Of a DNA stretch of 64,000 nucleotides, positions 1-17,481 are shown one piece after another (the first letter of the stretch is position 1; every line of letters starts with the position of its first letter). The notes under the pieces were generated by a model, which searched no databases, was not told where the DNA came from, and worked only from the letters and a program-made list of their open reading frames with translations. The stretch comes from Kiritimatiellia bacterium (GTDB lineage: Bacteria > Verrucomicrobiota > Kiritimatiellia > JAAZAB01). Made by a program: the position numbers and the translations under genes. The DNA lies in the NCBI GenBank assembly GCA_040767085.1, contig JAXGPF010000014.1:32001-96000 (forward strand). The letters run 5' to 3'.

Positions 1-445
1 GTTCAAGATGTCACGGTTCGCGAAGATCAAGACCATAGATGGATTGATCCGGGCTGAGTTGCGCGAAAACAATCAGATTGCTGGACCTTCCGACGCTGTT
101 GAAGAGGTCTTGATGTTCCTCCGGAGATGGGGGGAATTTCATTTTCCAAGATACCTTGGTGCATTGGACAAGATCCAACGAAGCGTGTTTGAGCGAGCCG
201 GCCATCAAGGTGGAAACTACGAACCCTACTGTGCGGCAGTGAAGCAACTCTTCATGCCCTTGTCCGCAACGGTGTTGGAGGAGTATGGAATCCCATACCA
301 ACTGTCCATGAAACTCGAAGAGCGTCTTCCGCTTGGAGATGACGTGGACACTATTCTGAGCAATTTGCCGAGAGTCGATGTTGCCAGCCTGAAGATGTCA
401 GGATTTGAACGAGACATGCTCAATGATGCGCTGAACAATTTGTGA
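1..445 (+). CDS. C-terminal part of a protein running in from outside the window; possibly an SF2 (HamB/Ski2-like) helicase tail
   Basis: Frame is open from the window edge; ends 13 bp before hsdR. FPRYL...Y...LEEYGIP pattern recalls C-termini of defence-associated DEAD/DEAH helicases, but no helicase motifs are inside the window. Confidence 0.35.
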   Translation, partial: FKMSRFAKIKTIDGLIRAELRENNQIAGPSDAVEEVLMFLRRWGEFHFPRYLGALDKIQRSVFERAGHQGGNYEPYCAAVKQLFMPLSATVLEEYGIPYQLSMKLEERLPLGDDVDTILSNLPRVDVASLKMSGFERDMLNDALNNL

Positions 446-458
446 GAAGTCGCTCAGA

Positions 459-3400
459 ATGAAGACAACAACAGAGCACGCGTTTGAAACCCACGTGGAG
501 GAACTTCTCCTCGGACAGTCGGGCTGGAAATCCGGCACGAATGCCGAGTGGGATAAGGAGCGGGCGCTGTTCCCAGCGCGTATCTTCGCCTTTCTGCAAG
601 ACACACAGGCGAAGTTGTGGGAGGAGATGCGTGGACTTCACGGCCCCGGTCTTGAGTCCATGCTCATCGCGGCGCTGGTTAAGGAACTCGACATTAAGGG
701 CATGCTGCATGTGCTTCGGCACGGCTTCAAGTTCTACGGCAAGACGTTTCGGTCGGCATATTTCAAACCGGCGCACGGGCTGAATTACGAGATCATTGAC
801 CTATTCAATAAGAATCAACTTACGATTACCCGCCAGACACCCTGCCATCCGGCCGACAATTCCACTGTGGACATGGTGTTTGCCGTCAACGGTATGCCGG
901 TCGCCACATGTGAATTGAAGAATCCCGGAACTGGCCAGAGTTGGCGCAAGGCGGTCAATCAGTACCGCGAGGATCGCGATCCGCGCGCGCCGTTGTTCCA
1001 GTTCAAGAACAGGGCTTTAGTTCACTTCGCCGCCGACCCGGACGAAGTCCACATGACCACGCGACTGGCGAATGAGCGGTCGCACTTCCTACCCTTCAAC
1101 AGGGGGAGTCATCCGGGCGAAATCCAGTGTGGCGCGGGCAATCCGCTGCATCCATCCGGCTATCGGACGGGCTATTTCTGGGAGGATGTCCTTCAGCGTG
1201 ACAGTTTCTTGGACATTCTCGGTCACTTCATGTTCGTCGAGAAACGCGATCAGAAGAAAGATGATGGCAAGGGCGGAAAGATTCGGGTGACAACGGAGAC
1301 GGTCATCTTTCCGCGTTACCACCAACTCGACGCCGTGCGAAAACTCGTGGCAACCGCCCGCAGAGAAGGCGCTGGCCGCAACTATCTCATTCAACATTCG
1401 GCGGGAAGCGGGAAGACCAACAGTATTTCCTGGCTTTCACACCGATTGGCGAGTCTGCACAACGAAAAAGACGAGAAGACGTATGATTGCGTCGTCGTCA
1501 TTACGGACCGCCGCATCCTCGACCAGCAGTTGCAGGACGCCATCTATCAGATTGAGCACTCACAGGGCGTGGTAAAGGCGATTGATCAGGACGCCAAGCA
1601 ACTCGCGGCGGCGCTGATTGACGGCACGAAGATCGTCATTACCACCTTGCAGAAGTTCCCGTTCGTGTTGCGCGGTCTGTTGCACACCGCTGGTGCCGAG
1701 AACCAAGATCAGGCAACCGACGATGAGAAACGGCAGGCTAAGGAATGGGAAGCCGCCATCGCCGCCCGAAAGTACGCGGTGATCGTGGACGAGGCTCATT
1801 CCAGCCAGACCGGCGAGACAGCGCGGGAACTGAAAGCCATTCTCGGAGCGAACGCTGCGCCAGAACCGGAAGACGCCGAACCGGACTGGGAAGACCGCTT
1901 GAACCAGATCATGCAGTCGCGGGGGCGGCAACCCAATCTGAGCTTCTTCGCGTTCACCGCCACGCCCAAGGGGAAGACCCTTGAATTATTCGGCCGGCCC
2001 GGAGCCAATGGCACACCGGAGGCTTTTCACGCCTACAGTATGCGGCAGGCTATCGAGGAGGAGTTCATTCTGGACGTACTTCAGAACTACACCTCGTATG
2101 ACACGTATTTCCGGCTCGTCAAGGCGGTGGAGGAGGACCCGAATGTCCCGAAGCACAAGGCGGCGCGTGCACTGGCGAAGTTCATGAGTCTGCATCCGCA
2201 CAACATTGAGCAGAAGACCGAGGTTATGGTTGAACACTTCCGGCTACATGTGAAGAACCAGATTGGCGGGCGGGCCAAGGCCATGGTAGTGACTTCATCC
2301 CGCCTGCACGCAGTGCGCTACAAACTGGCGTTTGAGCGCTACATTGCCGCGAACGGCTATACCGACGTGAGGCCCCTGGTGGCGTTCAGCGGAACAGTCA
2401 AAGACCCGGAGACCGGCCTTGAGTACACAGAACCGAGCATGAATCCAGATGTTGTGACCGGCAAACCGATCAGCGAGTCGCAGTTGCCGGATCGCTTAGA
2501 CTCCCCCGACTACCAGGTCTTGCTGGTCGCCAACAAGTACCAGACCGGTTACGACCAACCTTTGCTTCACACCATGTACGTGGATAAACGATTGGACGGC
2601 GTCCAGGCCGTGCAGACTCTATCCCGTCTGAATCGGAAGATTCCCGGCAAAAGCGAACCGTTCATACTCGATTTTGTAAACTCACCCGAAGACATCTACC
2701 GCGCGTTCAAACCGTACTACGACGCCACGAGTCTTCAGGAGGCATCCGATCCTTCCAAGCTGGAGACATTGAAACACGAACTGGACCAAGCCCAAGTCTA
2801 CTTCTGGAGCGAGGTGGAGGCGTTCGCGCAAATCTTCTATCGCCCTTTGGAGAAACAGAATGCCGGCGACCATGCCCGCATGCAGCAACACCTGCAACCG
2901 GCAGTGGACCGTTTCAAGGCAATCCCGGAAGAGGAGACGCGGACAGCATTCAGGGAGAAGTTGAGCGGTTATGTTCAGATTTACGCATTCCTGAGCCAAG
3001 TTGTCCCCTATGTGGACTCTGAACAGGAAATGCTCTACAGTTACGGCCGCTTCCTGCTTCCGCACCTGCCGCTTGAGCGAGACACCACGGTCTTGAAACT
3101 CGGGGATGAAGTCGGCCTCCAATACTACCGGCTGGAACGCGTGTCATCCGGCGCAATTCAAGTCCGCGAGGGGCCGCCTGAAGGCGTAAAGAGCCCGACG
3201 GATGTCGGCACCGGCAAGGCAAAGGACGAGAAGGTCCCGTTATCCGAAATTATCCAGGTACTCAACGACCGTTTTGGAACCAACTTCACCGAAGAAGACC
3301 GGTTGTTCTTTGAGCAGATCAAAGAAAAGGCGATCAAGAACGAGAAGGTCATCCGGACGGCCCGTGCCAATCCGCTCGATAAGTTCCAACTTGGCATCCG

Positions 3401-3569
3401 CAAACTGATCGAAGACCTCATGATTCAACGCATGGCCGACAACGACAAGATCGTAACGCGATACATGGACGATCAGGAGTTCCAGAACTCTGCCTTCCCG
3501 ATTCTCGCGAAGGAGATATTCGAGTCTATCCATGCGGGAGACGAATCGGAAACGACTACGCCAGGCTAG
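459..3569 (+). CDS. hsdR: Type I restriction-modification endonuclease subunit R
   Basis: Nuclease motif VDMVFAVNGMPVATCELKNP, Walker A IQHSAGSGKT, DEAHSSQ, FTATPK, KYQTGYDQP, QTLSRLNR; 1036 aa. Confidence 0.96.
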   Translation: MKTTTEHAFETHVEELLLGQSGWKSGTNAEWDKERALFPARIFAFLQDTQAKLWEEMRGLHGPGLESMLIAALVKELDIKGMLHVLRHGFKFYGKTFRSAYFKPAHGLNYEIIDLFNKNQLTITRQTPCHPADNSTVDMVFAVNGMPVATCELKNPGTGQSWRKAVNQYREDRDPRAPLFQFKNRALVHFAADPDEVHMTTRLANERSHFLPFNRGSHPGEIQCGAGNPLHPSGYRTGYFWEDVLQRDSFLDILGHFMFVEKRDQKKDDGKGGKIRVTTETVIFPRYHQLDAVRKLVATARREGAGRNYLIQHSAGSGKTNSISWLSHRLASLHNEKDEKTYDCVVVITDRRILDQQLQDAIYQIEHSQGVVKAIDQDAKQLAAALIDGTKIVITTLQKFPFVLRGLLHTAGAENQDQATDDEKRQAKEWEAAIAARKYAVIVDEAHSSQTGETARELKAILGANAAPEPEDAEPDWEDRLNQIMQSRGRQPNLSFFAFTATPKGKTLELFGRPGANGTPEAFHAYSMRQAIEEEFILDVLQNYTSYDTYFRLVKAVEEDPNVPKHKAARALAKFMSLHPHNIEQKTEVMVEHFRLHVKNQIGGRAKAMVVTSSRLHAVRYKLAFERYIAANGYTDVRPLVAFSGTVKDPETGLEYTEPSMNPDVVTGKPISESQLPDRLDSPDYQVLLVANKYQTGYDQPLLHTMYVDKRLDGVQAVQTLSRLNRKIPGKSEPFILDFVNSPEDIYRAFKPYYDATSLQEASDPSKLETLKHELDQAQVYFWSEVEAFAQIFYRPLEKQNAGDHARMQQHLQPAVDRFKAIPEEETRTAFREKLSGYVQIYAFLSQVVPYVDSEQEMLYSYGRFLLPHLPLERDTTVLKLGDEVGLQYYRLERVSSGAIQVREGPPEGVKSPTDVGTGKAKDEKVPLSEIIQVLNDRFGTNFTEEDRLFFEQIKEKAIKNEKVIRTARANPLDKFQLGIRKLIEDLMIQRMADNDKIVTRYMDDQEFQNSAFPILAKEIFESIHAGDESETTTPG

Positions 3570-3621
3570 ATAAGTAGATAATAATAGATAAGGGTCAAAA
3601 ACACCCAGGGTCAGACCTAAA

Positions 3622-3749
3622 GGGCGTGTTGCCCAAACCGGAGCCGCCCTCACCGCGGGCGGCTACAGTCGGAAAATTAGCGTTTCTTTACTATAAGCCG
3701 CGTTCGGTAACCGCGGATTCTTTATGTTGTGGATTTGGGCAACACGCCC
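3622..3749. mobile_element. 128-bp MITE-like element
   Basis: Perfect 16-bp terminal inverted repeats GGGCGTGTTGCCCAAA (3622-3637 / 3734-3749), TAAA direct repeats on both sides (3618-3621, 3750-3753), no ORF. Confidence 0.7.
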
Positions 3750-3822
3750 TAAATAAGTAACAAATACTTGATAAGAATTACGGATTATCTTGGTATCCTG
3801 GCATGGTTAGGCACAAATCTGC

Positions 3823-4743
3823 TTAGATTGCCTTCTTGAAAAGTTCAAAACGTTCTTCCAGGGCCGCCTGATCTGGTTTTAACTGATCTGGTTTAGGAAC
3901 CATGATTGTTTGGCCGTGAAAGCCCTGCAGTCCATGCTTCAGCATCGGGCCGTCAGTTTCATTGAGAACGTCTTTTCGAACTTCGATGATGTAATCAGGG
4001 CGTATCCCTAAGATTTGCCGGTCAAAAGCTCCGTGGTGCAGGCTGCAAAGAGCCAAACCATTTGAAACCAAAGGTAATCCTTTCGGATGACTGTCCGGAA
4101 GAATATGGGCAGCTTCAAGTAGCTCCTGATGCTTTAAGCGGCATATAGCACAGCGTTCGTGGTAAGCCAGCAAAACACGTATCCGGAATGACTGCTGGTG
4201 CATTCGTTGCCTGGCCTCAATGGTCTTGTAAAGGCGGCGGCCGAAAATATCCTGCTCAGCTACACCGGCGGGAGTTATTCCAACCTTGGCTTCATCGACG
4301 GCCACGGAGAAACTTAATTTATCCGGTTCATCATTGACAATGAACACGGGCCAGAAAGGCTGATACAAACCTTTCACAACACCAAACAAATATATAAGCG
4401 GTATCTTATGCTGCATCGCCAGTCTGAGTCCTACGTTATCCCTATGGCTGGGATCGGTGCCACGGTATCGGTAGCACAACAGATCATTATAATCGAATCC
4501 ATCCTCATAAGGACGTGCCTTGCCTTCGACTTCAGGTGCTGTCGTGATGGATAGCGGTAATTCTAAGACGGCTGGTTTGAAAATGCCCTGGGGTCCAATC
4601 AACGGCACCCGCCGGCCTTGAAACTCGAAGCCTTTAGCAAGCAGCGCCCTGGGTAGGACATCCCCATGAAACTGGGTAGCATTACGCAGGAAATCGAAAG
4701 CTGCATTTCGCACCTGAATATCGATGGATGATGCGCTGTTCAT
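3823..4743 (-). CDS. HNH endonuclease with N-terminal SRA-like domain (putative modification-dependent restriction enzyme)
   Basis: C-terminal CAIC...LEAAHI...NGLALCSLHHGAFD HNH motif; N-terminal PYEDGF...YRYRG...DNVGLRLAM...PLIYLFG resembles the SRA-fold pattern. Confidence 0.8.
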   Translation of the reverse strand: MNSASSIDIQVRNAAFDFLRNATQFHGDVLPRALLAKGFEFQGRRVPLIGPQGIFKPAVLELPLSITTAPEVEGKARPYEDGFDYNDLLCYRYRGTDPSHRDNVGLRLAMQHKIPLIYLFGVVKGLYQPFWPVFIVNDEPDKLSFSVAVDEAKVGITPAGVAEQDIFGRRLYKTIEARQRMHQQSFRIRVLLAYHERCAICRLKHQELLEAAHILPDSHPKGLPLVSNGLALCSLHHGAFDRQILGIRPDYIIEVRKDVLNETDGPMLKHGLQGFHGQTIMVPKPDQLKPDQAALEERFELFKKAI

Positions 4744-4816
4744 CGTTCATCTACAGCTAATATTATTGCCTATCTATAAGACATAGTAATGCATGCATTC
4801 TGGCACTGCTCGCCGC

Positions 4817-5632
4817 CTACCTGGCCGCCTTCGCTTGGTTTTCCATGGCTATCACATAGCGCTTGAGGTGATATGTTATCAGATGGACGTCCGCGTCGTC
4901 GATCTGGGCGTGCCGTTTAGCCATCGCCTTGGTGAAGGACAGATGGTTCATCAACCACACCTCGGGCCAATCGACGGTTGCCTTTACGAACCAGCCAGGA
5001 TACAGCACCACGGGCTGGACTTTGAATTCCTTGCCGGTGCTGGACTCTATGAGGTCGCGCAGCCATCGGGCTTCTGACAGGGCTTGGATCACGGGGTCAC
5101 GGTCGGGCTGGAAGCCGTTAACCTTTACCTTTTCGCCATCGTACGTGACCATGCACGGCCCATTAACGGGCTTGCTGTGGGTCTTGGTCTCGATGGCATA
5201 GATCCCGCCAGGGCCGACCAGCACGTGGTCCACGTTGAAGCTGTCGGAATGGATGTCATGCAGCACCTGATACCCGGCCGGGCGCAGCTTTTCCTCCAGG
5301 TACTGACCAACAGCCTCTTCGCCGATTTGCCCCAGGTGGAGCGACTTTATTTTCTTTTTCGTCCGCCACAGCTTCACCCCGGCTAACGTGACGGTCAAGG
5401 CGGCCATTATGGTGTATAGCCAGGGTGATCTTTGGGGATGGAACAACACGGCGATCCACTCGAGAAAGGCGACCACGATCATGCAGAACGCGGCGAAAAT
5501 CCAAGGCACGGCCACTTCATCGAACAAGTATTCAATACGTTCCCTGATCGACTGTCCTGGCATTCGAACAGGCAGGTCTTTGATCGGGCTTTTCCTATGT
5601 CGCTTGTTTTCTGGCATAATATCAACCGTCAA
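4817..5632 (-). CDS. NERD (nuclease-related domain) protein with two N-terminal TM helices
   Basis: GEEAV...VLHDI...NVDHVLVGPGGIYAIETKT NERD motif; two hydrophobic stretches precede it. Confidence 0.85.
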   Translation of the reverse strand: MTVDIMPENKRHRKSPIKDLPVRMPGQSIRERIEYLFDEVAVPWIFAAFCMIVVAFLEWIAVLFHPQRSPWLYTIMAALTVTLAGVKLWRTKKKIKSLHLGQIGEEAVGQYLEEKLRPAGYQVLHDIHSDSFNVDHVLVGPGGIYAIETKTHSKPVNGPCMVTYDGEKVKVNGFQPDRDPVIQALSEARWLRDLIESSTGKEFKVQPVVLYPGWFVKATVDWPEVWLMNHLSFTKAMAKRHAQIDDADVHLITYHLKRYVIAMENQAKAAR

Positions 5633-5907
5633 CTTTCAATTTAATTTAGAGCACTTTTATCAGATTGGCACGGAAAGAGAAAGACAAATCAGACAGAAAT
5701 ATTGGAACGAAACAGGACTGGAAACGGGCGGCATTCAACGCCGCCGCCGACAACTTCATTTCTCCGCCTTCCATGAAAAGACGCGTCGGAGTGCGCAAAG
5801 CACATCCGCTTCAAACACCGAGGATCAGATAGCATTCAAGGCAGGTGGAGATCCGTGCGGGCGAGGTATTTTCCGGATAAACAAGGGTGATATTTGGAAA
5901 TAGGGCG

Positions 5908-8250
5908 TCATTCAAGTTGTTTTGTGATTTTAAGGGAATTAGAGGTCGGCGGGTTTAATTTTCCAACCATAATGCCGAGTATGGGGTAGGCGCAGTCAGC
6001 CTTGGGAACGCATATGTCTTTATAAGCGGGATTGGTTGAACGGAAAATCCAATAGTCGGGAGACTGGATCAGGCGTTTGACGGCATGTTCAGTGGTTAAA
6101 TCGCTCGTAATCCCCAATTCAGTAAGATTTGCGATAACGATTTGATTCGGCTTGCGCGGCGCCCGGTGATATTCAAATATTATTCTATCGCCGATATTCA
6201 GTTCCGGTTCCATCGAATTTCCGGCAATTCGCACTACAAACCGATTCCGGCCGGCCAGGCGGTCAGGCACTATGATCCATGGACATTCCGTGGCATATTT
6301 CAGGTCGGAAATATCGAAGCCGGTGTATGCCGCCCCGGCTGCCAGCGTCCCAATAACTGGTAAATATCTTACAAAAGCCTCTCCGCGTATGTCGGCGTAG
6401 TTGCGGATTTCAAATGCGCTTTCTTGCTCAACCAGCCTGGCGCCCGGCCCTGCAGCAGGCTGATTCATGTGAGATTGTGCCGGAAAGGCGTTTGAATTGG
6501 CGCGCTTGCCCCTGGCCGATGACGGCATACGGACAGCGGCGGATTGTGCCGGCGGTTCCCATCGCGGCACGCAGCGCCGGAAGGCGGTGAGTTCCACGGC
6601 TTCCACCAGGCGCGAGAAGAGCTGTATTTGCCATTTATTACGTTGCAGTGGTAAATTCCCGCAAAATCCCGTTGCTTCCCGTTCAAATCTTTCAGAAAGG
6701 GACTCCCGCAAAACTTCCCAGCATCCAATTATCTCATCCCGGCGGCGATGCAGCAGCCCATTGGACGGTAAAGCGTCGCGTTTATTGTTGTTAATTTCCG
6801 GATGGCACGGCAAAAGGTTCCAGAGGTCGTTGTTGTGCCAGAGCGCAAATGGAATGACATGGTCCATGTCAAAGCGGGACGCCCGGATAGGCCTGCCTGA
6901 CCAGACACACTCGGAAACGCCCGTTTGTTCGAACAGCAGCCGCGCATCGCGAGTTTCACGTTCAGGGTCGGATATCGAAAGCAGTTTCTCCACGATGGCG
7001 CTTAAACTTGTCGCGCCCCTGGACAGGCGTTCCGTCAATTCCGCCCAGCGCAATATTGTTGCGTCCTGAATCCAGTTGCCGGTCATTGTCAGTTCGCGCC
7101 AGAGTTCAAGGGGCATGGTGACTTGCCGGGTTGTTTTATCAAAGCCGAAAACCGAGAAATCCGCACCGCCGCCCGCATAACGCACCGGCATATTCCAGAT
7201 CGTGCTTTCAATTTTCCGTATCGCCATGCGATAATATTCTTGCACATCAGCCGGCAAACCGTTGTTCTTGAGCGCGACCAGGAAGGCCGGCAATCCGCCG
7301 CCCTCACTGAAGGAATTGATCACTTTGCCTATCGGGGCGCGAATGGCAATTGGTTTTGAGCCATCCTGTGTTTCCCCGTATTTCTGGGCGATGAATTTTT
7401 CCGAAGCAATCAGCGGCCAGTAATAGACCAGCCACCGTTCGGCCAGCGTCCGTATGGGGATCCCGACCTGGCCGGGCAGGTCGTAAGTGGCGAGGTTATA
7501 CTGCGTCTGGGCAATCTCCGACAATGCGCGAAACAAGGCGAGTTTATATGTGGCGTCTTTCTTGTCGCGATTCAAGATGCTCTCAACCAAATCCAGCGGC
7601 CGGCCGGCATCATCGCCAAACCTCTGGAAAAGAAACGTGGCCCAAAATGTTCCCGGCCGGTCTTGGGCGTCGGCGGTTTCTTTTTCCCATAACAAGCGAA
7701 ACCCAACCCGTTCCAGGAGGAGCTTCAATTTTGCCGGCGGCAGATCGGCAAAGTAGCGATCATGCGGATCCCGCCGGGTTTTGGGGTCAATGTCAGGTCG
7801 GCGGGCGGGAATTGAAAGCAATAGGCGTCCGCCTGGCCGCAAGACGCGGCGCATGCCGTAGATTGCATCGAACAGATATTCTTCCGGCAGGTGCATCAAA
7901 ACCGCCGAACACAACAAACCATCAAACGAGGAATCGCTGCATGATTTCAATTCCGGCAAGCAGTCCAGCGCGAGGGATCCTTCGGCAGCGAACCCCGCCG
8001 TTCGGCAAGTCTGCGCTGCGATATCAAGCATTGCCTGGCAGGCATCGATCCCGGCAACGTCATGGCCAAGCTGCCGCAACCGCGCGAGGTCCCGGCCTGA
8101 TCCACAGCCGATGTCCAGAATCTTCCCAAACCCATTGAACGCATCTGCAAAATAATCAGAAACACCACCATTTACCGACAGATAGCGGCCGGCCAGCTGC
8201 TGGCTATGGGTGGAGTAATAGTTAAGGGTCTGGGCGTCCAGGTGATCCAT
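5908..8250 (-). CDS. Fusion of class I SAM methyltransferase, helical domain, HNH nuclease and S24 (LexA/UmuD-like) peptidase
   Basis: ILDIGCGSGRD and VLRPGG (MTase); CVWSG...DMDHVIPF...LWNLLPC...NNNKRD (HNH); LPVIGTLAAG, GNSMEP and AVKRL (S24). Confidence 0.85.
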   Translation of the reverse strand: MDHLDAQTLNYYSTHSQQLAGRYLSVNGGVSDYFADAFNGFGKILDIGCGSGRDLARLRQLGHDVAGIDACQAMLDIAAQTCRTAGFAAEGSLALDCLPELKSCSDSSFDGLLCSAVLMHLPEEYLFDAIYGMRRVLRPGGRLLLSIPARRPDIDPKTRRDPHDRYFADLPPAKLKLLLERVGFRLLWEKETADAQDRPGTFWATFLFQRFGDDAGRPLDLVESILNRDKKDATYKLALFRALSEIAQTQYNLATYDLPGQVGIPIRTLAERWLVYYWPLIASEKFIAQKYGETQDGSKPIAIRAPIGKVINSFSEGGGLPAFLVALKNNGLPADVQEYYRMAIRKIESTIWNMPVRYAGGGADFSVFGFDKTTRQVTMPLELWRELTMTGNWIQDATILRWAELTERLSRGATSLSAIVEKLLSISDPERETRDARLLFEQTGVSECVWSGRPIRASRFDMDHVIPFALWHNNDLWNLLPCHPEINNNKRDALPSNGLLHRRRDEIIGCWEVLRESLSERFEREATGFCGNLPLQRNKWQIQLFSRLVEAVELTAFRRCVPRWEPPAQSAAVRMPSSARGKRANSNAFPAQSHMNQPAAGPGARLVEQESAFEIRNYADIRGEAFVRYLPVIGTLAAGAAYTGFDISDLKYATECPWIIVPDRLAGRNRFVVRIAGNSMEPELNIGDRIIFEYHRAPRKPNQIVIANLTELGITSDLTTEHAVKRLIQSPDYWIFRSTNPAYKDICVPKADCAYPILGIMVGKLNPPTSNSLKITKQLE

Positions 8251-8572
8251 GGTTCAGTATCGCACTTTAGAGCAAAATGCTTGTGCTGATTTTCAGGATA
8301 AGTCAATCCAGAGCAAACGGCAATAAAATTAATTCCAAACGCCGTAACTCTTTAAAAATGTCCCCCTGACCGAGGGTCTGGCCGAGGGGAGGGGCCACAA
8401 CACCCAGGGTCGGCCCTGAAATTAAAAGTTAATTGTTTTGCTATCCGGACCATGCTCCAGGGAATGGCGGCCAAGGCGCTGGCCGCGCTGGCGGTGCGGG
8501 CCAGGCGGTCAAGGGACTGACCGCCCTACCAAAATTCTCAATTGCCGAGACAATTGAGAAGAAAAAGCGCAG

Positions 8573-9478
8573 TCAAGCCTGCGCACTCCAAAGCCGTTGC
8601 GCGGGCCCCATGGACTGGTCGCGATAATGCGATGGGGCGCAATGAAAATGGTGGCTGAAAACGTGGTAGAAATGCTGCAAATTGGCGAAGCCGCAATCCA
8701 TCCCGATGCGCTTGATCGGCTCGCCGGTCGACCGCAGCAGCCAGGCGGCGCGCGAAATCCTGGCCTGGAGCGTGAATTGCCGGAAATTAAGGCCCATGGT
8801 CCGGGAAAAAACATAGCGGAACCGGCTGGGGCTCAGCCCGCAATCCCGGGCCGCCTCGTTCAGGAGATAGCGCGCCGCGGGCTGGCATTTCAGGCGCTTG
8901 AGCGCGGGAACAATGCGCTGCAGGTTTTGCAACCGCGGCGCCGTTTCCGGCCGGCCGGCCGGGCTCTGCCAGTTGGCGATCATTAGCAGCAGCAACTCGT
9001 GGATCTTCAGCCAGAGGAGCGATTGTTGGCCACGCGCCGGCGGGTGCGTTCTTGCGGTTTGAAAAATCATTTCTCCGATCCGGACAACCTGCTGGCGGAG
9101 AGCGGGCGAGCTGGCGCGCGGCCGTTCGGCGGGAGACGCGAAAAACGGCGCCAGCCAGTCCACTTCCCCGAAGGGCGCGGCATGGCCGATGAATTCCGGC
9201 GAAATGGTGATGACAATGCGTTTGGCCGGCTTGGTCAGCCGGGTGGCGTGCGGCTCCCAGCAGGAGGTCAGCCAGAATTGCCCCGGTCCCGCGCTCAGGC
9301 GGTGGTTCGGGTAAGCAATTTCCTCGCACCCGCGCAAGACAACGCCGATTTGCAGATCATAATGGCTGTCCGCGGAAAATGCGGGGGTTGGCTGCCGGTA
9401 TTTTACGCAGCGGACATTGAACGGATTGGCGGCGTCCAGGTGATGATCAAATCGGACGGCATGCGTCAAGGTATCCAT
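8573..9478 (-). CDS. AraC family transcriptional regulator
   Basis: N-terminal cupin-like region; C-terminal double HTH (AARDCGLSPSRFRYVF...IGMDCGFANLQHFYHVF...PSHYR). Confidence 0.9.
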   Translation of the reverse strand: MDTLTHAVRFDHHLDAANPFNVRCVKYRQPTPAFSADSHYDLQIGVVLRGCEEIAYPNHRLSAGPGQFWLTSCWEPHATRLTKPAKRIVITISPEFIGHAAPFGEVDWLAPFFASPAERPRASSPALRQQVVRIGEMIFQTARTHPPARGQQSLLWLKIHELLLLMIANWQSPAGRPETAPRLQNLQRIVPALKRLKCQPAARYLLNEAARDCGLSPSRFRYVFSRTMGLNFRQFTLQARISRAAWLLRSTGEPIKRIGMDCGFANLQHFYHVFSHHFHCAPSHYRDQSMGPAQRLWSAQA

Positions 9479-9864: not shown

Positions 9865-9915
9865 GAACAAGGATTGCATTTGGAAAGTAGCACCCATCGG
9901 GAAAATAATCAAGTT

Positions 9916-12900
9916 ATGAAAAAAAGCCCTGGTTTCATCAGGATAATCGCCAGCGTCTGCGCGGCGGCCGCCATTTCAGCCCGGGCGCAAAACATCCAGG
10001 ACGATCCGCCGCTCAACGAAACATTTATCGGCCAATCCCTGCTCCTGAATGCCGCGGCCGCCTTCCCGGTCACGGCCTTTAAAGCCGGGGAAAACATGGC
10101 GGAATTTTCCGGGTTTACCGGGGTAACCAATCTCGCCGTCCGGGAGGGGACGCTGACTTTTACGCTGGTGGCGGACCAGGCCGTCCTGGCGTGGGGGAAA
10201 CACGATCAATCCCGGCCGGATTTCAAAATCCAGACCTATCCCGGGTATTTCACGGTCAACCTGGCGGCGCGCCAGTCGGCGGCCTGCGCCTGGACTTGCG
10301 TTTACCGCGATCCGACGCTGGCCAGCGTCAATGGCGCGCCCATCGCGGGCAAGCCGTTCAAGGACGGGCAGGGGCTGGTGTTTGAAAATGTGACTTCCAC
10401 CGGGAAGCGGCGTTATGACAGCAAGAAAAACGCGCTGGCCGCCGCGGTGGCGGGCACCGGCAGCCTGGAATTCACCATCCGGGGTCCGGCGGGGACCCGG
10501 ATAGAAATTACATCCGCCGAAATTGTGGAGCCGCTGCACAAGGTTTTCGCGCGGCATGAATTTGTCGTGCCCCCGGGGAAAATCTGGCGCGCGATCGCGG
10601 ATGTGGCCGGCGCGGCATTTTACGGCCATACCAGGAACCAGGCCAGTTTTTACGTGAATGGCCACGAGGTCAGGTTGCCCGTGCCGGCCATCCACCGGAT
10701 GAACGGGCATACGCTGGACATAACGCCGTGGCTGGTTCCCGGAACCAATGTGGTAGGCGGGTATGTGGAACAACATGTCTTGCAGCCGTCTTTCCACTTT
10801 CAAACCAGAATCGTGATGGACTCCGGCGAACTGGTGGAGGTGACCACCGGGCCGGGGTGGCAATACAGCTTTACGGCGCCGGAGGGCTGGAGCCGGCCGG
10901 GATTCGACGCGGCGGGCTGGCTGGCGGCCACGCAGACGACGGCGCTGACCCGCGCGCAAATGAAGCAGGGATTGAAGGGGGGGCGGACGGATTTCTGGAT
11001 GCCGGAATACCAGGGCCGCCTGGTGCTGGCCAATCCCGCCGGCCGCGAATTGGCCTTTGCCGAAACCAGCAATGTCGTCATGGAAGTCTGCATTCCCATT
11101 GGCCTGCGGGAAACGCACCCGGCGGTTGGCTATCGCGCGGGGCTTTGCCGGGGCGGCCGGGTTACCCTGCTGAAGGAAGGCCGGGTGTCCGAGTGCGCGG
11201 CGGATGGCCTCGACGCCGTTTTCCGGATTGACCTCGGCCGGCTGGCCGGCGGCGTTCATGTCATCGCCCTGGCGCTCCTGGATCGAGCCGGGAATGCGGT
11301 GGAGACGCGCGCGCGCGAACCGTTCCTCGTTATTCCCAACGCCCGGGGCAAAATCATAACCGGCCGAGACTACACCGAGGGCCTGGATTTGGAACTGGAG
11401 GACACGATTGATTTTACGGACGCCAAAGATCCGCATCCCAACTTTGAATCCTGCCCGGCGGAGGGCGAGATTAAAACCCCGGTGATTGTCAGCAAGCCGG
11501 GGTTGCGTTACCGGGAAGTGTCAAGCTGGCGGCGCGAAGCGGGCTTTTCGTACCGCATCGAGTTCAAGCATCCGGGTGATTTTTACCTGATGGAGGTGGA
11601 ATATCCGAATGACGCCAAGCGGCTGATCGAGGTGATGATCAACGGCAAGCAAACCGGGGTGTGGAACAATTGCCAGTCCGCCAGCGGCGCGGAGACGGGG
11701 GGGCGTTCCCTGCCAACCGGCAAAATGGAAAAGCTCCAGTGGCTGCACGTGGCCGATCCGGGCGTCCATTCGGTGGATATTGTCAATCACCGCAATCATG
11801 AAAAGTGCGCGGCCAGCCGCCTGAACATCTACCGGGTCAAGGGGCGTCTGCCGGAGCTGGCCGCCGGGCGCAGCCGCGCGTTCGGTCAATACACGGAGAA
11901 TGTCAAGTCGTATGGCGGCGTGGGGAATGTATTCGGAGTGGGCCGGATCGGTTCCGCGGATAATCCCGATTTCCCGGCCGAAATGACCCTGCCGCTGACG
12001 GCCTGGCACATCAAGTACCTGGAATGGTTTTACGATGTGTTTGACCGGTACATGCAATACAACAAGTTCTGCGGCCGCAACCTGCTGCTGATGGGGTGCT
12101 ATCAATACAGCGCTAAGACCGCCATGTATTTGCCGGCGCCGGAATACCAGACCGCGCGCATCAGCCAGTGCTGGCGCCGGATGCTGGCGCAGTTCATGGA
12201 CAAGAACGGCATGGAATTTTTCACCGAGGTGGACTGGGTCGAGCCGCCGGCGATTGACCATCCCGATGCGACCAACCCGGAAATCGCCGCGGGCGCCGAC
12301 ACGCTGCACATGGTTAACCGGGAGGGCGACCAGGTGGCCACGTATAACTGGCTGCACCCGCTGGTCAAAGAAAAATACATGGAATTGATGAGCGACCTGA
12401 TGCGGTCATTTGGCGATTTAAAAGCCTGCCGGGGCGTGCACACGGGGCTGGGGCCGCGCGCCGTGATCTGGAATATTCCGGGTTTTGCCCCGCATGACGG
12501 GCAGATGGACGCCCTCTATTCCAGCTATGACGATGTCACCTTCGGGCTCTTTGAGCGGGAAACCGGGGCCCGGACCGGCGCGGCTCCGCAGGACCCGGAC
12601 CGCTTCCGCAAACGCGCGGGCCGGCTGGAGCGAGATGCCGCGCTGCGGGCGGAGTTCCTGGCCTGGCGCGGCGCCAAACTGACCGGATTTTTCACCGAAG
12701 CCGCCGCCGCCATCCGGCGGCAGCGCGCGGATTTGTCCCTGGCCATGGTGCCGGCGCTGACGCTCTTCATGCGCAGCAACCGCGTGCCGGTATTGTTTGA
12801 GGAGTTGGAGTTAAAGCAAATCGGGCTGGACGAGTACCTGAAAAGTTTCGGCATCAGCCTGCCGGACTTGAACGCCATCCCGGGTGTCTTCGTCGGGCGC

Positions 12901-14518
12901 TGGGCCATCGGCTGGCTGCGCAGCAAGACCAATCCTTACAATTCCACCCAGGATGCATACACCTGGCTGGGGCAGACGGCCGGCAAATATACCGACCTGT
13001 TCAACCGCGGCGCGCCGGCGCACCGGTATGTCATGCTCTTTGCTGATTGGAATGAGAGCTGGTTCAACGGGCCCGGCGGCAAAAAGCGGGATGCCTCCAA
13101 AATTCCCGGCTTGGAAGACGGCTCGGACTGGATCATGTCCCGCCAACTTGTCCGCTGCCATAGTCAATTTGGCGGACTGAACGCGCGGGAGCCGGTCACG
13201 CACGCGCTGATTACCGGCGATCCGGATATCATGGCGCACGGCTTCTCCGACCTGGCGCTGCCGATCGGGCATGAGCAGGCGCTGCGCAGCATCGCGCGCG
13301 TCATTACCGCCCTGCCCGCGGAATTGTTCAGCCCCGTCCTGAAGACGCGGCTGGACACCAACCTGGCGATCCGCCGGCTCCAGCGCGCCGATGCCACCTG
13401 GTTTTACGTGGCCAATCCCTGCCAGTGGCCGGTCCAAGGCGTCCTTGCGCTCGAGCATGGCGGGAACATCCGGACCGTGCCGGACGGGGAAAACGCCGGG
13501 CAAAATCCGGCGACGCTGCCAATAAACCTCGAGCCGTTTGGCGTCCTGGCTTTCAAGTCCGATTCGGTGGCCTGTCAGATCACCGGGTATCGGACCGAAC
13601 CGCTCGCTCCGGAATGGCTGGAGCGGCTGGCGGGGGTGATGCACGCCATACGGACTTTTATCAAAGACAATGCCGCGCAGTTTTCGGACGCCAAAACAGC
13701 CGCCTTGGAAGCGGAAATCCAGGCGATTGAAGCAACCATTGCCAGGGGCGAATACGCCCTGGCTTGGGTCCGGTTGACCGATCCGGAAATGTGGCAGTAT
13801 TACATCTATGAACCATCCTGCGAAGCCAGGATCAGGAAAGCGCTGCTGCGGAATTACCTGACGGACAAGCCGGCGGCCTTACCCCCGGATTTCAAGCGGG
13901 CAGAGCCGCCGGATGGCCAGCCGCGGGTGCTGACCGTCAAGCGCGCTGCCGGCCCGATCAAGGCCGATGGCGTCCTGGCTGAAGCCGATTGGCAGGACGC
14001 CGTTTTCAACTCCGCTTTTTGGGATTGGGAGCGGCAAACCAACGCGCTGGTCGAAACTGGCGTAACCGCGCAGTTCGACGATCAGGCGCTTTACCTGGCG
14101 CTGGTCTGCGCCGATCCGGATACGGCCCGGCTTGAGGCGTCCGCCAGCGGGGAGCGGAATTTATGGGCGGGCGACGATGCCCTGGGAATTCTGCTGTATC
14201 CGCGGGAGCAGGGGTGTTACTATCAGTTCGGGTTTAATTCGAAGCGGGCCCGCTTTGACCAGAAGGTAATCATCGGCGGCAAGGCGCTATATGACGACTA
14301 CCGCCCGGAATGGCAATTCGCCTCGACCGTCCATCCGCAATACTGGCTGGCCGAGGTGAGGATTCCATGGAAAGCCATGGGCCTGGAATCGGCCGCCGGA
14401 AAAGATGAGCGTTAATTTTTTCCGTGCGTTCCGCTATAATGCCGTGGAAGGCGGATTCTGGAGCCCCGCTTCCGGGGTTCATAGCTACGAATATTTCGGC
14501 GGGGTGAATTTCGAATAA
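9916..14518 (+). CDS. Large secreted carbohydrate-active protein (galactose-binding-like domain, putative GH TIM barrel, C-terminal CBM9-like domain); +1 frameshift near 14400
   Basis: Signal peptide MKKSPG...ISARA; CBM9-like ADGVLAEADW...DDQALYLA...AEVRIPW. As read it stops at 14415, but the +1 frame from 14405 supplies the missing tail SVNFFR...W...H...FGGVNFE* ending at 14518. Confidence 0.7.
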
Positions 14519-14610
14519 ACTTGCGCGGCGCAAATTTAAATCGGGTGAACTGCGATATTCGCGCATAATTCAGGCGGAAAGAAAGGATATGTCTGACGAG
14601 GAGGTATCGC

Positions 14611-15705
14611 ATGCATGCTAAAATCATGGGGTGTATCATGCTGCTGGCGCTGGCCGGCGGCGCGGCGTGCGCCACGAACCGCTACGTGGCGACCAATAGC
14701 CCGGACCCCGTTTCGCCCTTCACCAACTGGGCGAACGCGGCCACGAATATCCAGAATGCCATTGATATATCATCGGTGGGCGATACGGTCTGGGTATCCA
14801 ACGGCGTTTATGATACCGGGACAAAAACGGCGACGATCAGGGCATCGCCGGAAACTTTCCGGATTGTGCTGGACAAGGCCATTACGGTCAGAAGCGCCGA
14901 CAACGACCCGGCGAACACGATTATCGCCGGCCAAACCGCCCCGGATGTCAAATGCGTCGGCATGGTTTCGAGTTCCACCCTGGTCGGCTTCACGATTTAT
15001 AATGGCCGGGCCAGCACGAATGGCTGGTATGGCGCGGGGATCCTGGGGAATGCGGATAAAACCGCGGTGGTGTCCAACTGCATTATCAGCGCTTGCTCGA
15101 ATGTGACTTATGGCGGCGGGGCGCAAAGCGTGACGCTGTATAATTGCCTGGTCGCCGGCAATAGGGCGCCGAACGGCGGCGGCGGCTTGCGGTACGGGGT
15201 GGCGTACAACTCCATCTTTACGGGCAATTCCAACCAGGCGATGGAGGAGTGCACCGCGTATAACTGCCTGGTGTCCGGCAATTTCGGCAACGGCGGTGTC
15301 GGCGCGCGCTATAGTCTCCTGTATAATTGCACGGTTGTCTCCAATACGGCGCTAACTTCCGGCGGGGGAACATTTCGCGGCACCAATTACAACTGCATTT
15401 CATGGGATAACAACATGGTTGATTATCAACCTCTGGCTTTCCATAGCTGCGGGGTGGGGTATACCAACGGGGGTTCGGTTTACGGCAATATCACCAACAA
15501 CCCGCTCTTTAAAAATCCCGGCGCCCAGGATTACCGCCTCGGCCGCGGATCGTCCTGCGTCAACGCCGGATCCAACCAGGAATGGATGGCCGCCGCCGTG
15601 GACCTGGATGGCAACCCGCGGATTATCGCCATTTTCGGCACCAATGTTGACATGGGCGCCTTTGAATACTTTGTCGGGCCGGGCACTTTGTTTTATGTCC
15701 ATTAA
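14611..15705 (+). CDS. Secreted parallel beta-helix protein with choice-of-anchor-Q-like C-terminus
   Basis: RBS GAGGAGG; signal peptide; YVATN...GDTVWVSNGVY; repeated NC..GN..GGG; PLF...DYRL..SSCVNAG...DLDGNPR...VDMGAFEY; ends PGTLFYVH. Confidence 0.8.
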   Translation: MHAKIMGCIMLLALAGGAACATNRYVATNSPDPVSPFTNWANAATNIQNAIDISSVGDTVWVSNGVYDTGTKTATIRASPETFRIVLDKAITVRSADNDPANTIIAGQTAPDVKCVGMVSSSTLVGFTIYNGRASTNGWYGAGILGNADKTAVVSNCIISACSNVTYGGGAQSVTLYNCLVAGNRAPNGGGGLRYGVAYNSIFTGNSNQAMEECTAYNCLVSGNFGNGGVGARYSLLYNCTVVSNTALTSGGGTFRGTNYNCISWDNNMVDYQPLAFHSCGVGYTNGGSVYGNITNNPLFKNPGAQDYRLGRGSSCVNAGSNQEWMAAAVDLDGNPRIIAIFGTNVDMGAFEYFVGPGTLFYVH

Positions 15706-15947
15706 ACTGGAGCCGGGCGCCGCCGAGCAAGGCGCTTTGATCCGCCGGCTGGGATTCCGGCGCCGCGGCTGGCAATCCCCGGGCGGGCCGCGCTGGCGGC
15801 ACTGGCCGCCCTCCCGGGAATTGCGATCGGAAATGATGCCTCCGCGGCGGTCCAGGCGGTAATTTTGGATTGCCGGGCTAATCCTCGCAGCGTAAATCCC
15901 GCACACTTCCGGATTGCATATCACGCGGATTTGCGTTAAAAAAATGC

Positions 15948-17481
15948 GGCTCCTAACCAGAATTTGTGGGTAAAAAACAGGTTTTAAAGTTTAAGAAGTT
16001 CTCCAAGCAATGGCGCCAAAAGATGGTGGAGTTATTAACAGCCTGCCGCTTTGGGCGTTTGGCGGCCCCGCAGCAGCCTGATTAATAACTCCTGATTGGC
16101 GCGATGGCGGAACGGAGATAAAGCGGCGGCAAAAAAATAGGCTGGCCTTTCCGTAATCCATTGCGTATGCAATGGGTGAACACAAAAAAAGGAGGACCAG
16201 CCCAAGGTGAAACTTAAAACAATTTTGAATCGTTTGCAACCTTTGAAACGTTTTATTTATCAGGAAACTTGTATGGTTTTGGATCGTCGCGGCCAATGGA
16301 AAGTGGATATAAGCATTCGTCCGCATCGCCAACGCGCGGCATGCTGCTCGCGTTGCGGGCGACCGCTGGCGACATACGACACTCTGCCTGAACGGATATG
16401 GGCGTTTGTGCCCATTTTGAATGTGCCGGCTTTTTTGCATTATAGTCCGCGCCGGGTAAATTGCCCCGAACATGGCGTGGTGGTGGAAGCGCTGCCTTGG
16501 AGCGATGGCAAACGACCCTACAGCAAGGCGCTGATGCTTTTTTTGGGGAACTGGGCGCGGAGGTTGTCCTGGAAAGAGACGGCGCTGATTTTCAAAGTCA
16601 GTTGGCAGGCGGTTTATCGGTCGGTCGAGTGGATGGTGGAATGGGGCTTGGCGCACCGGGAATTGGCCAATATAACGGCGATTGGTGTTGATGAACTCCA
16701 CGTAGGCAACGGTAAAAAGAGCAAGAACTATCTGACCTTGATCTATCAGATTGATGCGCAATGCCGCCGATTGCTCTGGGTCGGCCAAACCCGCCGGGCG
16801 GCCGCGCTGCGTAAAGGGTTGCAATCTTTGGGAAAACCCGTGCTGGCCGGCATTCGACATATATGTAGCGATATGTGGCGACCTTATCTGAAAGTCATTG
16901 CTGCGAGCCTCAGCCACGGTTGCCACATGATTGACCGCTTCCATGTCGTGCAAACCTTGAATGCCGCCGTGGACGAGGTCCGGCGCCGGGATATGGCGGC
17001 GATGACAGCGCGTCCGGCGGCCAAGCAAAAACTCAAGAAAATGCGCTGGACCTTGCTGCGCCGCAAAACCCGCGTGCGCGGCAAAGCTCGCGAAATGCTT
17101 GATCGGATATTGGGCACAAGACTGCAAACCGGCCGCGCCTATTTGTTCAAGGAAAGCTTTCAGCATTTTTGGAGCTATCACAGCCCAACCTGGGCGCGTA
17201 ATTATCTCCAGGCATGGGTCAAGCGCGCCTGTCGTAGCCGCATTGCGCCAATCATTAAGGCGGCTAAAACCATTGCTAAACACGAGGAGCTGCTTTTGAA
17301 CTGGATCAGAGCCAGAAACGAGGTTTTTACTGGCGCAACCGAGGGCTTGAACAATAAAGCTCGAGTGGTTACCAAACGATCTTATGGCTTCAGAACTTTT
17401 CATGGCGCGGAAATGGCGCTATATCATACCCTTGGGCAATTGCCCGAACCGGTAATCACCCACAAATTCTGGTGAGGAAAC
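15948..17481 (+). mobile_element. ISL3 family insertion sequence, copy 1 (1534 bp)
   Basis: 24-bp imperfect IRs (GGCTCCTAACCAGAATTTGTGGGT / GTTTCCTCACCAGAATTTGTGGGT, 21/24 match); 8-bp TSD AAAAATGC at 15940-15947 and 17482-17489. Confidence 0.95.
16207..17475 (+). CDS. ISL3 family transposase
   Basis: Zn finger CSRCG...RVNCPEHG, IGVDE, CSDMW, IDRFHVV, TEGLNNKAR...RSYGFR. Confidence 0.95.
   Translation: MKLKTILNRLQPLKRFIYQETCMVLDRRGQWKVDISIRPHRQRAACCSRCGRPLATYDTLPERIWAFVPILNVPAFLHYSPRRVNCPEHGVVVEALPWSDGKRPYSKALMLFLGNWARRLSWKETALIFKVSWQAVYRSVEWMVEWGLAHRELANITAIGVDELHVGNGKKSKNYLTLIYQIDAQCRRLLWVGQTRRAAALRKGLQSLGKPVLAGIRHICSDMWRPYLKVIAASLSHGCHMIDRFHVVQTLNAAVDEVRRRDMAAMTARPAAKQKLKKMRWTLLRRKTRVRGKAREMLDRILGTRLQTGRAYLFKESFQHFWSYHSPTWARNYLQAWVKRACRSRIAPIIKAAKTIAKHEELLLNWIRARNEVFTGATEGLNNKARVVTKRSYGFRTFHGAEMALYHTLGQLPEPVITHKFW

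Follow-up and report, generated by a model that had tools for sequence, protein, structure and literature searches.

A LexA/UmuD-type S24 tail on a methyltransferase-HNH enzyme of a Kiritimatiellia bacterium: a candidate RecA-responsive switch carried by restriction and defence enzymes

Why should an enzyme that combines a methyltransferase fold with an HNH nuclease end in a self-cleaving peptidase domain of the LexA/UmuD type, and would a cut by that domain turn the enzyme on or off? The question is raised by a gene in a 64,000-nucleotide stretch of the genome of a Kiritimatiellia bacterium (assembly GCA_040767085.1, contig JAXGPF010000014.1, positions 32,001 to 96,000 of the forward strand), which is referred to below as the window and in which all coordinates are counted from the first letter. 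A sequence-only reading of the window had described the gene as a single open reading frame (ORF) of 780 aa, and had proposed that RecA filaments release or activate its nuclease. The ORF is real. It lies on the minus strand, which that reading had left out, begins with ATG and is open throughout 5908..8250, and the plus-strand reading of the same span is full of stops. The features of the gene and of its surroundings are collected in Table 1.

A Pfam scan of the 780-aa protein returned 11 families at E<=1, and three domains scored above the curated cut-offs: Methyltransf_25 at residues 44-141 (E 3.9e-16, 60 bits against a cut-off of 27), HNH_4 at residues 448-495 (E 7.9e-8, 32.6 bits against 22) and Peptidase_S24 at residues 631-760 (E 2.9e-11, 43.5 bits against 23.3). 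The motifs picked out by the sequence-only reading all lie exactly where it had placed them (DIGCGSG 46, TYKLAL 234, LPVIGTLAAG 630, GNSMEP 677, VKRL 724). An AlphaFold model, built with an alignment of 52 relatives, reached a predicted local distance difference test score (pLDDT) of 86.3 and a predicted template modelling score (pTM) of 0.71. Its less confident parts were residues 639-644, directly after the predicted cut site, residues 711-720, and the linker at 570-607. The linker had been called low-complexity; this description is borne out by a pLDDT below 50 over its length and by a mean pairwise identity of 19.1%, against 57.5% for the methyltransferase, 66.4% for the middle domain, 63.8% for the HNH domain and 58.4% for the S24 core. 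At 58%, the S24 core falls within the range of the enzymatic domains (57-66%) and is thus held under the same purifying selection.

Relatives of the protein were collected with a word-indexed protein search, which found 638 proteins at E<=1e-3; the conservation counts given here refer to the best 120 of these 638. Among those 120, 117 are at least 700 aa long and have the same precomputed Pfam content. The relatives are full-length at 45-66% identity to the window protein, and the copy at locus L001 is 89% identical. The residues expected of a self-cleaving S24 peptidase, namely a Ser/Lys dyad and an Ala-Gly cleavage loop, had been recognized in the window protein alone, and they are kept throughout these relatives well beyond chance: A637 in 119 of the 120, A638 in 119, G639 in 118, S679 in 119 and K725 in 118. 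In an alignment of 29 tails, the host's own UmuD-like protein included, the G, S, M and K of the catalytic motifs are invariant. BLASTP of the window tail against the host UmuD-like protein aligns GNSM with GESM and also aligns VKR, and LPVIGTLAAG aligns with KVAAG of the same protein and with VAAG of a helicase tail. Cys-Gly variants of the cleavage site are present at loci L041 and L043. All sequence criteria place the S24 part in the LexA/UmuD/CI peptidase family, and the module is complete and apparently catalytically competent. A phmmer search of the S24 tail alone against the sequences in PDB found nothing at E<=1. The earlier statement that no helix-turn-helix (HTH) precedes the S24 domain also stands; there is no HTH among the 11 Pfam families at E<=1, and the N-terminal 570 residues are taken up by the methyltransferase, the reader-like domain and the HNH domain.

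A one-off fusion or an assembly artefact, either of which had been named as fatal to the sequence-only reading, was looked for by census and is ruled out by the size of the family, given the 117 of 120 relatives of at least 700 aa and the recurrence of the fusion at 38 of 80 loci. These loci were retained from a scan of one genome per species, in which 297 relatives were found; 38 of the 80 bear an S24 tail, and the remaining 42 either have no tail or are truncated at the end of a contig. The tailed loci come almost entirely from the Planctomycetota-Verrucomicrobiota-Chlamydiota (PVC) bacteria: judged by their record titles, 36 of the 38 are from Verrucomicrobiota, Lentisphaerota/Victivallales, Kiritimatiellota or entries labelled 'PVC group', one is from Desulfobacter and one is unlabelled. 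Tail-less forms are about 555-565 aa long and end directly after the helical bundle behind the HNH domain. Their hosts are spread over Acidobacteriota, Pseudomonadota, Planctomycetota, Myxococcota, Synergistota, Bacteroidota and Bacillota, a candidate-phylum bacterium and Methanomethylovorans. A tree of the enzymatic core was made from 72 rows, with L003, L026, L033, L037 and L066 (partial) and L018, L022, L065 and L074 (split matches) left out. Tailed rows are confined to one half of this tree, where they are interleaved with tail-less ones, and 4-5 changes between the two states are needed, at least three of which are forced by well-supported branches. The gene is patchily distributed. A profile of the middle domain matched 10 of 401 Verrucomicrobiota genomes sampled, nine of them strongly and seven with open frames of 751-830 aa; the gene is present in one of the two other genomes of the window's genus, and no relative was found among 2.9 million viral contigs. 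At L015, L018 and L065 the family matches span about 2.7-3.0 kb rather than 2.3 kb, or are split into segments or frames, and may contain insertions or frameshifts.

The tail is not restricted to this enzyme. A profile made from 27 family tails, the tail of a helicase at locus L046 and the host UmuD-like protein was searched against 1.84 billion representative proteins and gave 24,489 matches at E<=1e-3, 1,631 at E<=1e-10 and 41 at E<=1e-30. All 62 proteins of at least 300 aa among the best 150 matches were then scanned with Pfam, leaving aside 88 shorter ones, many of them fragments. The family architecture itself accounted for 13 of the 62. Ten proteins carried Type_ISP_C, most of them together with Eco57I or N6_Mtase, and seven were Schlafen-type helicases, two with GIY-YIG. 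The remainder comprised three ResIII/Helicase_C proteins, two with DUF3427, two type I specificity subunits (Methylase_S, HsdS), two with cpYpsA (one also with HNH_4), one each with RE_LlaJI, MZB, a topoisomerase zinc ribbon and a weak AAA_2 match, and 19 in which only S24 was recognized. In nearly all of the best tail-profile proteins the S24 match is at the extreme C-terminus. When 41 non-family tails were inspected, the G-S-M...K residues were found in all 41 and Ala-Gly or Cys-Gly at the aligned site in 40, with the site pattern LPxYxL+AA[AC]GxF. The S24 tail is thus a portable module found across restriction and defence enzymes. These other architectures surfaced only in the exhaustive profile search; a shared-word search for S24 tails among longer proteins found almost only the family itself. 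Within the 401-genome phylum sample, a further 12 long open frames (494-1365 aa) outside the family end in such a tail.

A tree of 70 tails places 24 family tails in one clade (Shimodaira-Hasegawa-like approximate likelihood ratio test, SH-aLRT, 99), which also takes in a cpYpsA tail and the tails of two ResIII helicases. L041 and L043 have tails that group instead with a cpYpsA-HNH protein (SH-aLRT 98), and that of L050 groups with a helicase tail (SH-aLRT 98) within a large Type ISP/Schlafen/HsdS clade. These three separate placements mean that at least three tail lineages occur on this enzyme family. The L041, L043 and L050 tails are 21-27% identical to the window tail and, with those of L020 and L044, which were outside the tail tree, represent a second or third tail type with sites ACG, TAG and AAAG. 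The L020 and L044 ORFs are 754 and 755 aa long and have complete second-type tails; their 'part' label on the core tree reflects short tblastn segments. Two of the tailed proteins, P0234 and P0181, are Methylase_S specificity subunits with an AAC-G site, and a self-cleaving tail on HsdS would touch both methylation and restriction. The L046 helicase (13705-16092, plus strand) is a 795-aa protein of the Schlafen/DUF2075 type, matching PADLOC PDC-S41/AbiO/Nhi, and has VAAG and GESM in an S24 domain at its C-terminal end; it sits three genes downstream of a family member in the same Kiritimatiellota island.

The enzyme that bears the tail was examined domain by domain. In the N-terminal domain the Pfam families are Methyltransf_25/11/12/31/23 and TehB, and relatives also match TPMT. 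Foldseek with the whole model gave methyltransferases only, and the best matches are the small-molecule methyltransferases SpnF, MitM, RPA2492 and UbiG (E 3e-10 to 1e-7) and a toxoflavin methyltransferase. Motif I residues D46, G48, G50 and G52 are invariant in the 52-sequence alignment and are kept in 119 of the 120 best relatives. No DNA methyltransferase family (N6_Mtase, DNA_methylase and the like) is present among the 11 Pfam families at E<=1. No NCBIfam model reached its cut-off, and the best-scoring ones were again small-molecule methyltransferases. Judged by these profiles, the domain is a class I methyltransferase of the small-molecule class, outside the DNA methyltransferase families, in agreement with the earlier view that it lacks DNA-methyltransferase character.

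For the middle domain, the sequence-only reading had spoken of a 'TYKLAL helical domain'. The motif is there, but the label should be changed, since a reader-like domain fits better and the fold resembles sulfur-binding domains (SBDs) at middling scores. Pfam assigned no family to 66 middle domains and gave only five weak WHIM1 matches; a profile of the domain against the sequences in PDB gave a single chance match to a ribosomal protein (E 0.24), and a look-up in the ESM Atlas led only to clusters annotated 'hypothetical protein'. Residues 212-568 were modelled separately with pLDDT 91.2 and pTM 0.89. Foldseek on this reader-HNH model found nothing at E<=1e-3. VIA-align matched the middle domain (model residues 5-215) to the SBD of Hga (8h0l_B, Z 6.9, 117 of 146 residues, root-mean-square deviation 3.2), of SprMcrA (7ccd_A, Z 6.6) and of ScoMcrA (5zmn/5zmo/5zmm, Z 6.1-6.5); the five SBD entries, which are among its best fold matches outside the HNH domain, cover 117-129 residues, in a Z range that is shared with winged helices. 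The sulfur pocket of ScoMcrA is formed by H116, R117, Y164 and P165, and most homologues have Lys in place of R117 (PMC6224610). In our protein the distance from K230-K231 (K231 being invariant) to W278-P279 is 48 residues, the same spacing as from H116-R117 to Y164-P165, which makes these residues candidate counterparts of the pocket. DndC had no match in the host genome, which is compatible with the idea of a phosphorothioate reader but is not evidence for it.

Model residues 219-348 align by VIA-align with the HNH domains of Cas9 (8d2k_A, Z 7.4; 7mpz_A, Z 6.2), and D463, H464, N473, N478, N487, K490 and D492 are invariant in the 52-sequence alignment. By profile, residues and modelled fold, the domain is an HNH_4, or His-Me finger, member of the Cas9 type.

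Prerequisites of a RecA-responsive tail are present in the host. Its genome, which is 95% complete, encodes RecA, ClpX and a 149-aa UmuD-like protein (L081:1477-1926) that has KVAAG, GESM and VKR and adjoins a UmuC-like gene. PF00717 has two matches only in this genome, the UmuD-like protein and the 780-aa gene. No match to LexA_DNA_bind was found in it, and the organism may be without a canonical LexA.

We favour, though with somewhat less than even confidence, the reading in which self-cleavage of the tail, triggered by RecA, is an off-switch. A stand-alone, DNA-targeting defence enzyme of about 560 aa would have gained a portable C-terminal S24 tail, on a flexible linker, in bacteria of the PVC group. 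Its N-terminal domain, of the S-adenosylmethionine-binding methyltransferase fold, may modify or sense something, and the middle domain, reader-like for DNA or DNA modifications, would direct the Cas9-type HNH nuclease. When RecA filaments form on single-stranded DNA (RecA*), the tail would cut its own chain at Ala638-Gly639 in the manner of LexA, UmuD and CI; to our knowledge, every characterised protein with this dyad and site self-cleaves when such filaments form. The cut would most likely inactivate the enzyme, whose fragment would then end in ...LAA, an end of the type by which ClpX recognises LexA after its cleavage. The nuclease would thereby be removed during chromosome repair, and the tail would act as a built-in, SOS-coupled form of restriction alleviation.

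Four considerations lead us to prefer this direction of the switch. Enzymes without a tail are frequent and lie among tailed ones on the core tree, so that the tail can be done without, and its exchange among unrelated enzymes, on a linker neither ordered nor conserved, suits a generic tag. The off-switch is further favoured because the Type ISP, HsdS and LlaJI partners of the tail are restriction-modification enzymes that need no activation but put the chromosome at risk once recombinational repair gives rise to unmodified DNA, and because the predicted cut leaves ...LAA (AAA, VAA or AAC in other tails), which may be compared with the ClpX signals on cleaved LexA. Neher et al. in 2003 reportedly identified a C-terminal VAA as the ClpX signal of LexA. 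According to a passage of PMC10584840, cleavage of LexA uncovers latent ClpX signals that lead to degradation, and the N-terminal fragment of CI is bound by ClpX only after cleavage. EcoKI offers an example of the proposed outcome, since PMC4231737 describes ClpXP-dependent restriction alleviation when unmodified sites arise, for instance by homologous recombination.

Several points weigh against the off-switch as set out here. The computations establish the architecture, the intact and conserved residues, the portability of the tail and the host genes. That the HNH nuclease cuts DNA, that the tail cleaves itself, that it depends on RecA* for this, that the cut switches the enzyme off and that its fragment is degraded by ClpXP are all steps that we infer. 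A hydrophobic-Ala-Ala end is intrinsic to S24 sites, so that ...LAA is expected under any model and is not specific evidence of a degradation signal. The ClpX step is taken from other bacteria, and its specificity may differ in PVC bacteria. As no LexA was found, a co-protease activity of RecA in this host is implied by the UmuD-like gene alone. A few tails have no Gly at the site (LAAS at L045, AAAS in P0250). If the enzyme were modification-dependent, as type IV enzymes are, it would spare new unmodified DNA, and a need for alleviation would be less obvious than with Type I or ISP enzymes. The SBD-like nature of the middle domain is a lead and not a finding, as it depends on fold matches of a model at Z 6-7, and the winged helices of Cdc6/ORC score at the same middling level on this domain (Z 6.3-6.7).

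The evidence for an intact and conserved self-cleavage module would serve equally well for a switch of the opposite sense, in which the tail keeps the nuclease inactive by occlusion or forced dimerisation and a cut triggered by RecA*, formed in phage replication or DNA damage, frees an active methyltransferase-HNH enzyme. The processing of UmuD to UmuD' is a precedent of activation by S24 cleavage, and some tail partners, such as the Schlafen/DUF2075-type helicases that match PADLOC PDC-S41/AbiO/Nhi, belong to classes that could act late in infection. We consider activation the less likely of the two directions, though a serious rival. Forms without a tail occur commonly across many phyla and branch from among tailed ones, so that the enzyme is apparently tolerated without an inhibitor and the tail is probably not an obligatory one. 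Because the tail swaps between unrelated enzymes, and is joined to them by an unconserved and disordered linker, a generic tag is favoured over a co-adapted inhibitory interface, which would fit this pattern poorly. Type ISP enzymes and HsdS also work without tails, and gating by RecA* would delay the restriction of incoming DNA. The proposal of the sequence-only reading that RecA* releases or activates the nuclease is therefore not supported as stated, given the widespread and interleaved tail-less forms and the same kind of tail on ordinary restriction-modification enzymes.

It is also conceivable that the tail has no link to SOS at all and is mainly a dimerisation or oligomerisation module, or one for slow, RecA-independent self-processing during maturation. 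The absence of a LexA match leaves the SOS circuitry of the host uncertain, and a passage of PMC10584840 describes S24 as the dimerisation domain of LexA and CI. Pure dimerisation, however, needs neither the dyad nor the Ala/Cys-Gly site. The dyad is nonetheless retained by 118-119 of 120 relatives, and among the 41 tails on other enzymes the dyad is found in 41 and the site in 40. Together with the presence in the host of RecA and of a UmuD-like gene with a cleavage site, this makes such an explanation quite improbable to us. Less probable again is a role in recruitment. Binding to RecA filaments is part of how S24 proteins come to be cleaved, and all partners of the tail are DNA-acting enzymes. 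The tail could dock the enzyme onto RecA-covered DNA, as LexA and UmuD dock, and thereby lead the nuclease to intermediates of recombination or replication, such as those of phage DNA, with cleavage only ending the visit; but the catalytic dyad is conserved, which suggests that selection acts on cleavage itself. We attach very little weight to the last possibility, that this is not an immune gene but a DNA-repair or mutagenesis factor under UmuD-like post-translational control. The S24 module and the HNH domain both occur in repair contexts, and the methyltransferase fold is without an assigned substrate. Against this stand the patchy, accessory distribution (10 of 401 genomes) in a low-GC island, the variable defence-gene neighbourhoods, and the restriction and defence enzymes that make up the other partners of the tail.

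If the favoured off-switch reading is correct, it has a wider bearing. Protection of the chromosome from the cell's own nucleases during repair is known in detail for few systems, of which EcoKI with ClpXP is the main example, and a nuclease with a RecA*-responsive, self-cleaving tail of its own would solve the problem simply and in a way that can be transferred. The LexA/UmuD switch would thereby also gain a novel role, beyond transcription and translesion synthesis. An outcome in either direction, off or on, would extend to the whole set of tailed restriction-modification and defence enzymes. A broader proposal, which is attractive but rather doubtful in our estimation, is that S24 tails form a portable RecA*-sensing cassette on immune enzymes (Type ISP, HsdS, LlaJI, DUF3427, Schlafen-type and ResIII helicases, methyltransferase-HNH), amounting to a post-translational 'SOS regulon of immunity' that destroys or unleashes them; if so, the cassette could be one of the chief links between DNA damage and immunity in this host genome without LexA. 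A compact tag for DNA-damage-responsive degradation or activation might be a possible engineering use. It is a long shot that phosphorothioate DNA is the joint target of the TehB/TPMT-like methyltransferase domain and the sulfur-binding-like reader.

The gene lies, as the sequence-only reading had claimed, in a defence island, with HamB, HsdR-like, HNH_2 and NERD genes nearby. The HamB gene enters the window as the C-terminal part of an ORF open at its 5' end, and the Hachiman system probably starts just upstream of the window. No HsdM or HsdS was seen beside the HsdR-like gene within the window. On the other side of the 780-aa gene is an AraC-type regulator and then a long ORF of 1513 aa, whose counterpart at L001 (1533 aa) occupies the same place beside the AraC gene. 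The GC content is 51-57% over positions 1-9000 of the window, against 60-69% further on. Two terminator-like hairpins between the AraC gene and the start of the 780-aa gene suggest that the latter has a transcription unit of its own; a promoter and terminator scan of the window against shuffles showed no enrichment (3 found against 4.2 expected; 9 against 7.9).

Table 1. Features of the 780-aa gene and of the neighbouring part of the window (coordinates in the window; residues in the 780-aa protein)
Feature	Coordinates	Strand	Residues or length	Basis and remarks
Whole gene, methyltransferase/reader-like/HNH/linker/S24 protein	5908..8250	-	780 aa	ORF list and translation; stop codon 5908-5910
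Class I S-adenosylmethionine-dependent methyltransferase fold, small-molecule type	7621..8250	-	1-210	Pfam, Foldseek, motif I D46-x-G48-C49-G50-x-G52
Reader-like middle domain	6955..7611	-	214-432	K231, ATYKLAL 233-239, YYWP 276-279, W384, W393, R401-W402; without Pfam family
Cas9-type HNH nuclease domain and helical bundle	6553..6933	-	440-566	D463-H464, N474, N478, N487; Pfam HNH_4
Disordered, poorly conserved linker	6430..6543	-	570-607	pLDDT and identity
S24 (LexA/UmuD-type) peptidase domain	5956..6429	-	608-765	Ser679 codon 6214-6216 in GNSM; Lys725 codon 6076-6078 in VKR
Predicted self-cleavage strand LPVIGTLAAG	6334..6363	-	630-639	Predicted scissile bond A638-G639; new C-terminus would be ...TLAA
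Hachiman HamB C-terminus, 5'-open ORF	2-445	+		PADLOC E 2e-25
Type I HsdR-like gene	459-3569	+	1036 aa	HSDR_N, SWI2_SNF2, T1R_D3
HNH_2 gene, downstream of the 780-aa gene	3823-4743	-	306 aa	PADLOC 'HNH' E 3.6e-23
NERD gene, directly downstream of the 780-aa gene	4817-5632	-	271 aa	Domain match
Two terminator-like hairpins	8535-8584	-		Just after the AraC gene, upstream of the start of the 780-aa gene
ORF	9874-14415	+	1513 aa	No Pfam or PADLOC match

The neighbourhoods of other family members were sampled at 12 tailed and 14 tail-less loci, with three genes on each side. No neighbour gene is conserved across them. The neighbours are varied defence genes, including HNH_2, NERD, Mrr, AbiEii, GmrSD, type I restriction-modification, McrBC, zeta toxin and Vsr. 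HNH_2 genes are also found near the family members at L001, L005, L013 and L059, and not at the other 22 of the 26 loci. A split form, in which a separate S24 gene would adjoin the enzyme, was looked for and is absent beside all 14 tail-less loci. The 780-aa gene is thus a stand-alone gene of patchy, accessory distribution in a low-GC defence island.

As to whether the architecture had been described before, full-text literature searches found no paper on it and none on S24 domains fused to restriction or defence enzymes, with subscription-only papers outside their coverage; where PMC5714182 mentions S24, it deals with genes for signal peptidases that lie close to other nucleases. Annotation pipelines do detect the domains, as can be seen from automated JGI names of the kind 'SAM-dependent methyltransferase/SOS-response transcriptional repressor LexA'. 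Among catalogued defence systems, mad2 of MADS (PADLOC PDLC04134) has in common with our protein a class I methyltransferase domain (E 2.8e-13). Membership in MADS was rejected, as residues 31-182 alone are matched, to positions 280-416 of the 492 in the profile, and the rest is unmatched.

The closest comparisons are with systems that each share one part of the proposed scheme. With LexA, lambda CI and UmuD (MEROPS S24, PF00717), the protein shares the G-x-S-M serine, the V-K-R lysine and a hydrophobic-Ala-Ala|Gly site before the core. Unlike LexA and CI, it is a protein of 780 aa without an HTH and hence not a repressor, and its S24 domain is a C-terminal appendage on an enzyme of 570 residues; the part released is the DNA-binding domain in LexA and CI and a 24-residue peptide in UmuD. 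The SBD-HNH type IV enzymes ScoMcrA, SprMcrA and Hga resemble it in layout, each being a single stand-alone chain in which the HNH domain comes after a reader, as it comes after the reader-like domain here. There is, however, no similarity to them at the sequence level, and here the nuclease is of the Cas9-type HNH_4 kind and is accompanied by an extra N-terminal methyltransferase fold and the S24 tail. EcoKI with ClpXP is alike in the proposed logic, in that a restriction nuclease is removed by proteolysis when the cell's own DNA is vulnerable (as described in PMC4231737). In EcoKI, however, the signal is prolonged translocation by HsdR on the chromosome and no self-cleavage takes place, whereas the trigger proposed here is autoproteolysis by a built-in module, stimulated by RecA*. 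What is new in the 780-aa protein, compared with all of these, is the joining of an S24 switch to a reader-HNH nuclease, while the kinds of component are already known.

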